DNA of 64,000 nucleotides from Octopus vulgaris. Lineage: Eukaryota. The stretch is taken from positions 62,248,001 through 62,312,000 of the forward strand of contig OX597827.1 of the NCBI GenBank assembly GCA_951406725.2. Direction: 5' to 3'. Each line of letters starts with the position of its first letter. Position 1 is the stretch's first letter. Positions 15,670-19,661 of the stretch are shown here, in pieces. The position numbers were made by a program, and so were the translations under genes. Under the pieces are notes generated by a model, which had not been told where the DNA came from, searched no databases, and saw only the letters and a list, made by a program, of their open reading frames with translations.

Positions 15670-16545
15670 CTTTTGTTTGTTTTCGTCATTGTCCGGTAGT
15701 TCGTTAGCTTATTCCCAGTGGCTTTTCACCACTGACGCTATCAGAAGTGATCAATATCAACGTTAAAGGCGCGAAATTTTAATGATCCTCTGGACCTTGA
15801 CTGATGAGGAGTTAACTACGAATTTTCTGTTTGATGTTTCCGTAAAAAGTTTCCGTTTGTGGTGCTTTTGTTAAATCTTTGAAATATGATACACGTAACG
15901 CTACGCACTGTTGTAAAATATTCTCGGAGTATTTTTTCTGCGACGTCTATTTCTGTCTGCTTCCCTTTCTTAGTCTCTCTTTTGTCTTTCTCCCTCTTTT
16001 CCTTCCTCATACTTCTGCCTTCATTCTGACTTTCTATTTGTCCTTTTCTTGTCTCCCGTTATTTTCCTTTCCGTTACCCCACATTTGTTTGTTTTGTGGT
16101 CCTTTTTTGTAATATATATATATATGTATATATATGTATATGTATATATATATGTATATATATATATATGTATATATATATGTATATATATATGTATATA
16201 TATGTATATGTATATATATATATATATATATATATATATATATATATATATATATATATATATATATATATATATATATATATATATATATATATATATA
16301 TATATATACACATACATACATACATATATTATTTTGACGTGTTTGTTTTCATCATTGTCCTATGCGTTCATTAGCTCTTCCAAGTGGCTTTTCGCCACTG
16401 ACGCTACCAAAATATCAAAGGCGCGAAATTATAATGCTCTTTCGGACATTGACTCATGAGGAATTAGCTACGAATTTTCTGTTTCTTATCTTTTTCTTAA
16501 ATTTTCCGTTTGTTGGGTCCTTTTTTTTAAAAATATATGTTACAT
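15670..16545 (+). repeat. Two diverged ~210-bp direct repeats (15670-15880, 16335-16535) containing hammerhead-like cores
   Basis: Shared agtggcttttc.ccactgacgcta...aaaggcgcgaaatt...ttgact.atgagga.tta.ctacgaattttctgttt. Confidence 0.8.
15753..15808 (+). ncRNA. Candidate non-circularly permuted hammerhead ribozyme
   Basis: AAT-A-TCAACGT ... C-GAAA-TT ... ACCTTGA-CTGATGA-G; stems I and III and a G-C stem II pair can form; activity untested. Confidence 0.5.
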
Positions 16546-17752
16546 ATATCTGAGGACAGATTATGTTTATATAAAAAAAAAACAGATATATAATAACAGA
16601 TAACAACTTTATTTATCAAAAAATGCTATGAGGATAAAAATAAACCTTCTTTTCTATAATATTATTCAATAAAGCCACATTCAACTTCAACAACTGCTTC
16701 TATATGAGATCTAAATCATCTACATGCTCGAATCAGTTGGTCCTGGTTCATTTTGGTCATTACTCTGACTATGGCAGCTTTCACAGAATCTTTGAGAATA
16801 GCCATATCCATTTAATATATATATATATATATATATATATATATATATATATATATATTCTATCTATCTATCTATCTATCTATCTATCTATCTATCTATC
16901 TATCTATCTATCTATCTATCTATCTATCTATATGTATATATGTATATGTATATGTATGTATATATATATATATATACATACATATACATATACACCCCCA
17001 CACACATCCACACACACACACATATATATATATATATGTATGTATATATGTATATGTATAAAGCAAGCTGACAGAATGGCTATTATACCGGGCGAAATAA
17101 TTGGCGTTATTTACCCCAACTTTACGTTCTGAGTTCAAATTCCGCCAAAGTCGTCTATGCCTTTCATCTTTTCGGGGTCGATAAAATAAGTACTAATTGA
17201 GCCCTGGGGCCAATATAATCGACTTGCCTCCTCCCTCGAAATTGCTGCCTTGTACAATATAACATATATATGCACGTGTGTGTGTGAGTGTGTGTGTGAG
17301 AGCGCGCGTATATGTCTGCGTGCGTGCTTGTCTTATAGTTTATGTTTGACCTTTACAACCACTTGACAAGCGGTGTTGTCTTGTTTACGTCCCTTAGCTT
17401 TGCGTTTCGGCAACCAAAAGGCACCGATAGATTAGGTATCGGGCATAAAAATAAGTGTTGAGGTTGAATCGCTCGACCACCCTGAAATGTAGTGTTCCAA
17501 CATGGCCGCAGTCCAGTGTTTGAAACAAGTTCAAGATAAAAAAAATACAGCTAAAAAAAATCTCAAAATTCCAAGCAAACTACCTCTTTTTTGGGGGTGG
17601 GGGTGGGGGTGGGTGGGGTATAAATAAATAACACCAAAAAAAACAAAAGATCTACGACCGAAGAAATAACACACACATACACACACACACACACACGCAG
17701 ACACACACCCACGCATGCACCCGTCACACACACACACACATACATACAAAAG

Positions 17753-18142
17753 TGGAGGCGCAATGGCCCAGTGGTTAGGGCAGCGGACTCACGGTCATAG
17801 GATCGCGGTTTCGATTCCCAGACCGGGCGTTGTGAGTGTTTATTGAGCGAAAACACCTAAAGCTCCACGAGGCTCCGTCCGGCAGGGGATGGTGGTGATC
17901 CCTGCTGTACTCTTTCACCACAACTTTCTCTCACTCTTACTTCCTGTTTCTGTTGTACCTGTATTTCAAAGGGCCGGCCTTGTCACTCTCTGTGTCACGC
18001 TGAATATCCCCGTGAACTACGTTAAGGGTACACGTGTCTGTGGAGTGCTCAGCCACTTAGACGTTAATTTCACGAGCAGGCTGTTCCGTTGATTCGGATC
18101 AACCGGAACCCTCGTCGTCGTAACCGACGGAGTGCTTCCAAC
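17753..18142 (+). mobile_element. Apparently full-length SINE-C
   Basis: tRNA-like head with A/B boxes; CpG-rich, little decay. Confidence 0.85.
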
Positions 18143-18759
18143 ATACAAAAACTCACATATACATGAACGAATAAATGGCATTGTGTTTTTTTCTATCTGT
18201 AGATATTACATAACATGAACACTAAAACATTAATGAGACATGCCAATGATGGTCTAGCAGAAATAATGTCAGTTATATTAATGGCAGTGACGTAAGTCTA
18301 ACAGGAGGATGAAGAAAGAGCGGTTTTAGCAATCGTCTGTTTGACATCATTTCCTAAAACACAAAAAAAGAAGGAGGAAACGAAAGCAATAAAAAGAATA
18401 CAAACAAACATTAACCATACAAAGAATACACTCTCATGTGTGTGTGTGTGTGTGTGTGTGTGTGTGTGTGTGTGTGTGTGTATGTGTCTCTATATGTGTG
18501 TGCGTAAGTATGTGTGTGTAAGTATGTAATGTCTATCTATCTATCTATCTATCTATCTATCTATCTATCTATCTATCTATCTATCTATCTATCTATCTAT
18601 CTATCTATCTATCTATCTGTGTGTCTGTGTCTGTCTGTGTATCTATCTATCTGTCTGTCTCTATCTATCTATCTATTTATCTATCCATCTAACTACATGA
18701 ATATCATATGAATATATATATGTATATATATATATATATAATATTCATTTTTGTGTTTT

Positions 18760-19075
18760 AGGCTTAGGAGTGACTGTGTGGTAAGTAGCTTGCTTACGAA
18801 CCACAAGGTTCCGGGTTCAGTCCCACTGCATGGTACCTTGGGCAAGTGTCTTCTACTTACTTGTTTCATTCATTTGACTGCGGCCATACCGGAGCACCGC
18901 CTTTTAATCGAGGAAATCGACCCCAGGACTTATTCTTTGTAAGCCTAGTATTTAATCTATCGGTCCCTTTTGCCGAACCGCTAAGTTACAGGGACATAAA
19001 CACACCAGCATCGGTTGTCAAGCCATGATGGGGGGGGGGGGGCAAACACAGACACACAAACACACACACACACAC
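18760..19075. mobile_element. SINE-A head (+) fused to SINE-A 3' half (-)
   Basis: Orientation switches near 18857 (cttctact|tacttgtttca). Confidence 0.75.
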
Positions 19076-19455
19076 TCCTCTTTTTCTCTCTCTTCTACCC
19101 CTTCTTAATTCCTTTGTTCCTCTTTACCTCTCTTTTCTCTTCTCACGTGACCGCTGTGCCGACTACTGGCCTTTTTGGGTCTGGCAGCGGTCGCGGCAAC
19201 ATCAACATTTTTTTTCTCTGCCGTAAGGCACAATTCCTAATACACCAGCTGAATTGAATTCGTTTCCTAGTCGAAAGACGCCTGTTGTGATGTCCTGTTA
19301 TTATTACTATTATTGTTTTTTTCGTATTATTTTTGTATTTATATTCGTGTAACATCATCTGTTTTTCCGTTCTTGTTTCGTATACATTCGAAGCTTTTTT
19401 TCCAAGGAATCTAATGCTCTTAGCTTAGTTTTTCCTTGGGTTTGGCCAGATTGGA

Positions 19456-19512
19456 GCAATCTCAAGATTAATCAGCCGAATTTGCGAGGATGATCCGGTT
19501 CTTGACTGAAGA
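19456..19512 (+). ncRNA. Candidate permuted hammerhead, divergent copy within a (TA)n-associated repeat (19075-19590)
   Basis: GCAAT-C-TCAAGA ... C-GAAt-TTGC ... TCTTGA-CTGAAGA; same spacing as the 15753 copy. Confidence 0.45.
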
Positions 19513-19661
19513 TTGAAGGCTTCGAATGACCCGCCCGTGTTTTTTGTATCGTCTTCTGGAAGTTTTGCGTTCTTGTCCCATTTTGTATTATATATATATA
19601 TATATATATATATATATATATATATATATATATATATATATGTGTATATATATATATACAT

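Follow-up and report, generated by a model that had tools for sequence, protein, structure and literature searches.

Three loci in the window, a stretch of 64,000 nt from Octopus vulgaris (OX597827.1, positions 62,248,001 to 62,312,000), are probably decayed copies of a hammerhead RNA that likely cleaves itself, has a non-circular strand order and a core strand split between A9 and G10.1, and sits at the 3' end of Penelope-like elements inserted in (TA)n. Two of the loci belong to repeat family A and one to family B, both of them inserted in (TA)n. The preliminary description of this DNA had read them as hammerhead strands in reversed block order at the end of a (TA)n-associated retroelement. 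The order S-G-C was borne out at the window loci and in the repeat families, the end is that of a Penelope-like element, and both the placement of the cleavage site and the pseudoknotted fold are supported by the sequence and by strand pairing. A plain reversal of blocks overlooks the 5' strand of stem II and a helix linking stem I with stem II, and the loci are not three separate cases since the copies at 15753 and 16409 belong to one family.

Read 5' to 3', the predicted RNA consists of a P0 strand, the P4 hairpin, the 5' strand of stem II, a strand of the joining helix and block S (stem III, UH, stem I), followed by a linker of 1-5 nt, block G (3' strand of stem II, GAAA, stem III), the partner strand of the joining helix, then stem I with CUGANGA, and the second P0 strand. 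The bases after CUGANGA pair with the far-upstream strand that adjoins the P4 hairpin. The stems cross in the order S-G-C and do not form the nested three-way junction of types I, II and III, with its cyclic order C-G-S. Because the 5' strand of stem II lies upstream of the cut, the core strand is split between A9 and G10.1.

The first copy of family A (15670-15890, + strand) is the non-coding 3' end of a Penelope-like element, truncated at the 5' side, where it meets (TA)n; 40 of 357 candidates for this family were scored (78-84% identity). Its P0 5' strand (15699-15715) pairs with 15808-15823, which contains CGAAU, and the family A duplex has an energy of -16.1 kcal/mol, a value matched by 2 of 500 shuffles. 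The P4 hairpin (15716-15734) abuts stem II, the 5' strand of which (15735-15739) lies upstream of the predicted cleavage site. The 5' strand of the joining helix (15741-15747) pairs with 15787-15793 and has its counterpart in the type SGC helix of the available text of PMC10085705. Block S (15751-15763) comprises the 5' strand of stem III, U16.1 at 15755, H17 at 15756, with the predicted cut 3' of it, and the 5' strand of stem I. Block G (15768-15780) holds the 3' strand of stem II, GAAA at 15773-15776 and the 3' strand of stem III with one lesion at 15779, and is followed by the 3' strand of stem I with CUGAUGA at 15801-15807 (15794-15807) and the P0 3' strand (15808-15823). In family A a G follows CUGAUGA and a C precedes GAAA. 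This copy had been regarded as the closest to intact; it carries G10.1 to A at 15735, its stem III is reduced to 3 bp, and as a ribozyme it is probably dead. The segment 15720-15830 that had been proposed for cleavage assays is incomplete, as the RNA begins about 55-75 nt further 5' than in the earlier reading.

Each of these three copies carries a core lesion; lesions in every one had been noted. The second copy of family A (16329-16510, + strand) is predicted to be inactive, with about 14 nt deleted around block S and G5 changed to C at 16455, so that its box at 16453 reads CTCATGA. The family B copy (19330-19590, + strand) has its 3' end followed by (TA)n, and family-like sequence probably extends further 5'; here 40 of 3025 candidates were scored (93-96% identity). 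It contains the P0 5' strand at 19385-19398 and the P4 hairpin at 19402-19439, as placed by an unconstrained fold of the intact copy L034, then the stem II 5' strand with two lesions (19440-19445) and the 5' strand of the joining helix (19446-19451). Blocks S and G (19456-19485) include H17 at 19461, the stem II 3' strand at 19472-19477, G12 at 19478 and A15.1 to U at 19481. The 3' strands of the joining helix and stem I, CUGAAGA (19506-19512) and the P0 3' strand (19515-19528) occupy 19493-19528. The GAAA boxes of the three copies start at 15773, 16425 and 19478 (GAAT in the last) and the CUGANGA boxes at 15801, 16453 and 19506, which confirms the reported offset of 28 nt. The reported 16 nt between the cleavage base and GAAA also holds, 16 nt preceding G12 after H17 at 15756 and at 19461; the spacing of 10 nt at 16414 reflects the deletion in that copy. 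A fourth copy, family E-like and adjoining (TA)n, was found on the - strand at 59898-60001; its 5' end precedes GAAA by a few nt and thus falls just 3' of the predicted cut. A reverse transcriptase (RT) ORF is present in the window at 43394-45505, and no tie between it and the hammerhead copies was made.

Pairing was scored in 25 real copies and in 11 subfamily representatives. Among the representatives the upstream strand gives stem II 54 of 55 pairs, and stems I and III, for which covariation had been claimed from the window, have 52 and 53 of 55 respectively; in each case none of 100,000 partner permutations was as good. In the 25 copies 84.5% of 838 cells were paired compared to 74.4% after shuffling, the covariation score was 0.340 compared to 0.160 (0 of 500 shuffles as good), and slid controls gave 23-42%. 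G10.1-C11.1 is G-C in 22 of the 25 and A15.1-U16.1 is U-A in 23. The joining helix was 81.5% paired, both sides changing in three of its six pairs, and the core bases CUGANGA, GAAA and UH were near-invariant. Covariation across copies and conservation of the core boxes, both proposed earlier as checks, favour the fold. The majority sequences of all six families (A-F) have intact UH, GAAA and CUGANGA and 5/5 pairs in stem II, and stem III is of full length (5-7 bp) in the families. Young copies in which the motif is intact include those in L112 (1556-1732, from one P0 strand to the other), L034 (1528-1703, likewise) and L092 (family E). The three stems (I, II, III), as well as the joining helix, are shown by covariation to be real; P0 and P4 are less firmly shown. 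In the unconstrained fold of L034, P0, P4 and stem II abut (z = -3.68), and the P0 duplex is strong in family B (1 of 500 shuffles as good) as in family A. It was not significant in families C, D, E and F (59, 118, 290 and 471 of 500 shuffles as good, respectively) and was absent from the minimum-energy folds of D, E and F.

The motif is abundant. GCCGAAA-N23-26-ACTGANGA had 11,786 exact matches in the genome (G000) and its reversed control 15; CCGAAAC-N20-27-CTGANGA had 1,764 matches compared to 304 for the control. A full descriptor with five elements found 80 distinct matches in 1.06 Mb of loci and none in shuffled loci, a count that is not a genome-wide rate as these loci were picked for the families. 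Rfam returned no hammerhead model among 140 E-value matches for positions 10000-25000 of the window, and no gathering hits for four loci.

In these families the 3' end is fixed and may bear a tail, copies are truncated at the 5' side and occur in tandem and inverted, and the target is (TA)n, all of which are traits of Penelope-like elements (PLEs). These features are also described for Naiad elements in the available portion of Craig et al. (2021, PMC8557442), where 5' truncation is variable. Like non-LTR retrozymes, they include short tandem non-coding units with one hammerhead per unit, spaced 696 nt apart in family B pairs and about 750 nt in family C; the longest ATG ORF in a family D unit encodes 95 aa. 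For family F the fold is probably the end of a Naiad reverse-transcriptase element in the O. vulgaris genome. By eye, the family matches the 3' end of Naiad_Ovul/Obim; remnants of the C-terminal part of a Naiad-like RT lie upstream of its UTR in L352, L358 and L361, and in L352 the complete motif follows the remnant. Families A-E differ in that a parent element and an ORF link to Naiad were looked for and not found. Six short motifs of families A-C gave one chance hit and no true match in the Craig supplement, in the available text of which line breaks can hide matches. A Neptune-like RT/GIY-YIG element in L009 was rejected as a parent, as by eye it ends in its own type I-like hammerhead sequence; a PDB search with its protein gave no matches. 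Similar remnants beside a family C copy (L344) and a family B copy (L256) were also rejected, those copies being separate truncated pieces and the remnants' own ends, by eye, type I-like hammerhead sequence. The cephalopod Naiads are described as long inactive in the portion of PMC8557442 at hand, whereas family D copies are 97-100% identical, and therefore another enzyme may move family D.

The 5' ends of insertions mark the predicted cut. Among the first 92 of 526 family B matches, 25 ends fell within 20 nt from the site onward compared to 5 before it (p=1.6e-4), and over 50 nt the counts were 39 and 8 (p=2.8e-6). The strongest step among 190 scanned positions was at +3 from the site. For family D the counts were 15 and 1 when possible (TA)n ends were allowed, and 11 and 4 by the strict count (p=0.06). 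The sequence at the predicted cut is ATA in family D and has no TA in family B; AT microhomology with the target may inflate the family B ends 5-9 nt after the site. The step in family B is indirect evidence that would point to cleavage in vivo. We suggest that P4 is stacked on the end of P0, which would keep A9 beside G10.1, so that the usual hammerhead core could form and cleave 3' of H17. Where tandem units are transcribed together, this cut would make the 5' end of the RNA template, which a Penelope-type reverse transcriptase may copy once it has initiated internally, at a point downstream of a later unit. Such a template end would account for insertion 5' ends that reach the site and go no further. 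The non-coding tandem units of families B-D (about 700-750 nt) would have to obtain the enzyme from elsewhere; family F is probably a Naiad 3' end.

It is possible, although rather unlikely as the main cycle, that cut-to-cut monomers fold back on themselves, are re-ligated to circles as in non-LTR retrozymes and are copied into tandem arrays by a rolling circle, a scheme that is compatible with the split-core hammerhead and was proposed for PLEs in the accessible part of PMC4209133. One monomer contains all strands, and family D forms arrays of 2-4 units (672-720 nt each); within arrays, 7 of 9 pairs of units show 0-1 substitutions, compared to a spread of 0-15 between arrays. This similarity is also explained by a homogeneous parent array, and a circle, being endless, would not be expected to leave 5' ends stopping at the cut.

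We consider it improbable that the fold is conserved as a protein-binding or folding signal that cuts itself poorly or not at all, with the 5' ends piled up by RT stalling or microhomology. Hammerhead mutants of the Poseidon element still insert in vitro (PMC11167929), metazoan PLE minimal hammerheads cleave weakly according to the available text of PMC4209133, P0 is weak in families E and F, and family D has ATA at the site. However, all catalytic bases are kept across subfamilies with differing stems, and family B shows the step with no TA at its site. An enzyme that has reached the 5' side of stem II would already have left all 3' strands of the core behind, and P4, the hairpin it would meet next, ends about 22 nt upstream of the cut; stalling would therefore be expected to place the ends elsewhere.

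A split core places the octopus motif close to, but apart from, the permuted type SGC of Eckert et al. (2023, PMC10085705; compared here in its available portion), with which it shares the cyclic block order, the short linker between stems I and II, the joining helix and all core bases. The comparison with published permuted hammerheads that had been called for holds for these features and fails at block C. This block is interrupted here: the 5' strand of stem II precedes the cut, and the RNA's termini belong to a helix inserted after A9. In the same portion, Eckert et al. assume that block C cannot be interrupted, the SGC examples come from environmental sequence, CSG from two metagenomic sequences, and the genome of a known organism provides none but one weak GCS case; here a single animal genome has more than 11,000 pattern matches. 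A plain type SGC, in which block C would be undivided and a minimal stem II would directly follow CUGANGA, is very improbable. The G and C noted in family A would suit it, and family E and the L232 family allow 4 of 5 pairs there, but the position after CUGANGA is U or A in families B, C and D, and pairs after CUGANGA number 0-4 of 5, in total 17 of 55 against the 54 of 55 upstream, for which that placement was rejected. Likewise, in the 25 copies the upstream strand paired in 111 of 125 stem II cells and the bases after CUGANGA, at the best of three offsets, in 49. There is next to no likelihood that the downstream CGAAU serves as the GAAA box of an ordinary hammerhead of type III or type I, or that the motif arose by chance among repeats. 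CGAAU, although present 11-12 nt after CUGANGA in families A-D and, as reported earlier, after the core in all three window loci, is missing from E and F, lacks a partner for stem III in families B and C, and pairs with an upstream AUUCG as a strand of the inserted P0 helix and not of the core; the control matches number 15 against 11,786.

The split-core motif also resembles the type I or minimal hammerheads in PLEs as well as in non-LTR retrozymes, as far as the accessible parts of PMC4209133 and bioRxiv 10.64898/2026.07.22.740005 describe them, in its position at PLE ends and in its short non-coding tandem units. Those are nested type I folds with a weak stem III that work as dimers, in contrast to a pseudoknotted monomer with a stem III of 5-7 bp, and the octopus motifs would escape the type I models used in such surveys. 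Natural hammerheads tolerate an additional base between A9 and G10.1 (PMC3705267 and the available text of PMC4209133), and such a base is common in those of PLEs and retrozymes (the same parts of PMC4209133 and the bioRxiv report); the helix junction proposed here is far larger, and no precedent for it was found in the literature searched. Nor did that search, which covered mainly freely accessible literature, find a published report of the split-core layout or of permuted hammerheads in Naiads.

If the RNA cleaves, hammerhead connectivity would extend outside the six thought possible, and the A9/G10.1 step could carry a whole helical junction, which bears on ribozyme structure and on switch design. 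The step that insertion 5' ends show at the predicted cut is relevant to the role of PLE hammerheads, which the in vitro study of Poseidon did not settle; in that element RT starts internally, insertion in vitro did not need hammerhead cleavage and the site showed no RNA ends (PMC11167929). Non-circular permutation of this RNA would be moved from metatranscriptomes into animal genomes, in high copy and with many natural subfamilies. Naiads were reported to lack a canonical hammerhead, with 10 'HHR_core' and 8 'HHR_half_core' notes in the available part of PMC8557442; by eye, 10 of 41 published consensus sequences of Naiads terminate in the split-core fold, and 6 others carry an intact type CSG. 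The scrambled split-core form would offer an answer to this apparent lack. Permuted hammerheads are probably no rarity of environmental RNA but a main Naiad ribozyme across animal phyla, as intact type CSG in nematodes and, splinted at A9/G10.1 by two extra helices, as the split-core form in ctenophores, cnidarians, an acanthocephalan, a crustacean and cephalopods, with more than 10,000 copies in one genome and a cut that may determine, in vivo, the 5' end at which the retrotransposed RNA begins.

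Three loci in the window, at 15753, 16409 and 19456, had been described as carrying the strands of a hammerhead ribozyme in non-circular order, and re-reading of the window sequence confirmed the motifs, their order and their offsets. Those at 15753 and 16409 are copies of a single repeat family (A), and 19456 is a copy of another (B). Families C, D and E were found in the flanks of loci fetched from the genome, and many further subfamilies came from a loose pattern search of the genome. A tight pattern, with the GAAA strand before the CUGANGA strand, had 11,786 matches in the 2.8 Gb genome, compared to 15 for the control; one 16-mer from the published 3' end of Naiad_Ovul had 603 exact matches in the same genome, which points to an octopus as its probable source. 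The feature is real. No Rfam hammerhead model matched in window 10000-25000 or in four fetched loci. Natural non-circular hammerheads are known (PMC10085705); within an incomplete coverage of the literature, we found no published report of a split-core hammerhead, of animal genomes with non-circular hammerheads in high copy number, or of a link between non-circular hammerheads and Naiads.

The strands of the copies run stem III-UH-stem I (block S), a short linker, 5-6 bases, GAAA-stem III (block G, with the 3' strand of stem II) and stem I-CUGANGA (block C). A stem II partner downstream of CUGANGA was rejected, as 49 of 125 cells pair with the bases before GAAA at the best of three offsets. 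Their partner instead lies about 21 nt 5' of the predicted cut (111/125 cells). After this upstream stem II strand comes one whose partner immediately precedes the 3' strand of stem I, giving a helix that joins stems I and II; it is the same helix as in the type SGC hammerhead, where Eckert et al. showed it to be necessary (PMC10085705).

In a MAFFT alignment of 25 real copies, 84.5% of 838 cells were paired compared to 74.4% in shuffles, and the covariation score was 0.340 compared to 0.160 (0/500 shuffles as good). Slid-structure controls were 23-42% paired, and both sides change in five of the six pairs of the upstream stem II. Because kinship among copies inflates covariation counts, one copy per subfamily and partner permutation were also used. 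The 11 representatives were picked as well preserved, and several are related; distinct 5' strands among them numbered 9, 8 and 10. Pairing was 52/55 in stem I, 54/55 in stem II and 53/55 in stem III, with 0/100,000 partner permutations as good for each, bearing out the covariation proposed for stems I and III. Within families, the variation appears to be neutral decay without covariation signal.

The core strand is itself split at the A9/G10.1 step. What follows A9 pairs with a strand still further upstream (helix P0); a hairpin (P4) comes directly after that strand, and G10.1 comes next. When an intact family B copy (L034) was folded without constraints, the result was precisely P0, P4 and stem II (z = -3.68). 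Support for P0 was good in families A and B and did not reach significance in families C-F. Inspection of each family places the start of P0 0-2 nt after A9 and its end adjoining P4. P0 and P4 would stack, placing A9 beside G10.1. Hammerheads with a single additional base here are known, and they tolerate it (PMC4209133, PMC3705267). Eckert et al. assumed that at most 1-2 bases could be inserted there and on that basis counted six permutations (PMC10085705). The split-core RNA shares its cyclic class with SGC, CSG and GCS but is opened at a fourth place; it is modelled to work like a type SGC or CSG hammerhead, yet without their uninterrupted block C. We consider it quite likely that intact copies cleave as modelled.

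Lesions had been noted in every window copy, and this held for all three: at 15753, G10.1 is changed to A, stem I has one mismatch and stem III is down to 3 bp; at 16409, G5 is changed to C and there is a deletion; at 19456, A15.1 is changed to U and stem II carries two changes. Hammerhead numbering and the expected effects of core lesions are established, and, judged from sequence, all three copies are probably inactive. The majority sequences of families A-F are intact, and family D copies are 97-100% identical. A fourth, E-like copy of the motif superfamily lies at 59898-60001 (minus strand); its 5' truncation falls directly 3' of the predicted cut, where it meets (TA)n.

The proposed setting, a (TA)n-associated retroelement end, held up: the 3' end of the copies is fixed at (TA)n, some carry a tail, their 5' ends vary, and they occur in tandem and in inverted arrangements, traits described for Naiads and other Penelope-like elements (PLEs) in PMC8557442. 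The family D unit is non-coding, measures 672-720 nt and forms arrays with as many as four units, and copies of families B and C have similar spacings. Naiad-like reverse transcriptase (RT) remnants precede family F. No parent ORF for families A-E was found in the fetched loci and flanks; neighbouring Neptune-like remnants, considered as parents, appear to be separate elements. At L344:1437-2786 (minus strand), a Neptune-like 3' end joins directly onto a family C copy truncated at its 5' end, with no (TA)n in between, which may reflect a template switch and hint at the enzyme moving that family. Since cephalopod Naiads are called long inactive by Craig et al. (PMC8557442), an enzyme other than theirs may have moved the young family D.

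A PLE at L009:2091-3212 (minus strand), which faces a copy of family A tail to tail, has a 374-aa open frame with RT and C-terminal GIY-YIG (weak Pfam match, E=0.025) and, by eye, a type I-like hammerhead in its 3' UTR; remnants resembling its protein lie in the window at 31828-32028, 30810-30971 and 63710-63961. A 703-aa frame with an RVT_1 domain (43394-45505, minus strand; E=7.6e-32) is probably a LINE and showed no link to the hammerhead finding. A 174-nt unit repeated ten times in tandem, with copies 98% alike, occupies 2374-4128, together with a 608-aa stop-free minus-strand frame that has no real Pfam match. Dispersed repeats, SINE-like in appearance and with tRNA-like heads, lie between microsatellites at 17750-18140, 18760-19030, 19660-20075 and 20190-20340.

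In the supplement of Craig et al. (PMC8557442), 41 of 54 Naiad consensus 3' ends were viewed by eye without computation, mostly over the last ~400 nt. The split layout was present in 10 (Bfor, Chem-3, Amil, Aacu, Anas, Movir-2, Plae, EuTe, Obim and Ovul), among which three Acropora and two Octopus sequences are near-identical sets; P0 and P4 fall outside the stretch viewed in Plae and EuTe, stem I is just 2-3 bp in Bfor, and Aacu has lesions. The whole-block type CSG, known to Eckert et al. from two sequences (PMC10085705), was seen in six nematode Naiads (Nbra-1, -2, -3, Hcon, Hpol and Asuum, the last with one extra U after A9). Partial cores of ambiguous layout were present in Esco, Ptep, Sdum, Smim, Dst-1, -2 and -4, and the remaining 18 had no core visible in the stretch viewed. 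Canonical hammerheads were not reported for Naiads by Craig et al., who did annotate cores and half cores that they left unexplained (PMC8557442). The 3' ends of CGi, Sglo, Olur, Tgra, Pmar, Chem-1 and Chem-2 (PMC8557442 supplement S5) share a conserved, structured-looking motif directly after the ORF. By eye, the stretches viewed in these seven contain no hammerhead core, and the shared motif is a candidate for an unrecognised ribozyme. Among the sequences of PMC8557442 supplement S5, Naiad-1_Movir and Naiad-4_Chem have, where others have the hammerhead, a putatively twister-like motif, and Naiad_Parc has a stretch that may be HDV-like.

Family B 5' ends were mapped for the first 92 of 526 matches, using an anchor on the 3' side of the core. 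Going upstream to the predicted site, ends per 10-nt bin numbered 2, 4, 4, 5, 14 and 15, then dropped to 0-3 per bin across the next 140 nt (profile on a reference with a variant at the cut site). On the corrected reference, 25 of these ends fell in the 20 nt at or after the site compared to 5 before (p=1.6e-4), three of the latter being 3-4 nt overlaps that could be flank, and the strongest step among 190 positions was at +3. For family D (100 of 408 matches; 106 rows, less 4 at locus edges and 24 internal units, with two duplicate pairs merged), the counts were 15 and 1 when ATA was counted as (TA)n and 11 and 4 (p=0.06) when it was not. Microhomology may contribute to the pattern. Speaking against a needed role, Poseidon could do without hammerhead cleavage in vitro, and RNA ends were not observed at its site (PMC11167929). 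The step in insertion 5' ends is indirect evidence that the predicted cutting would occur in vivo.
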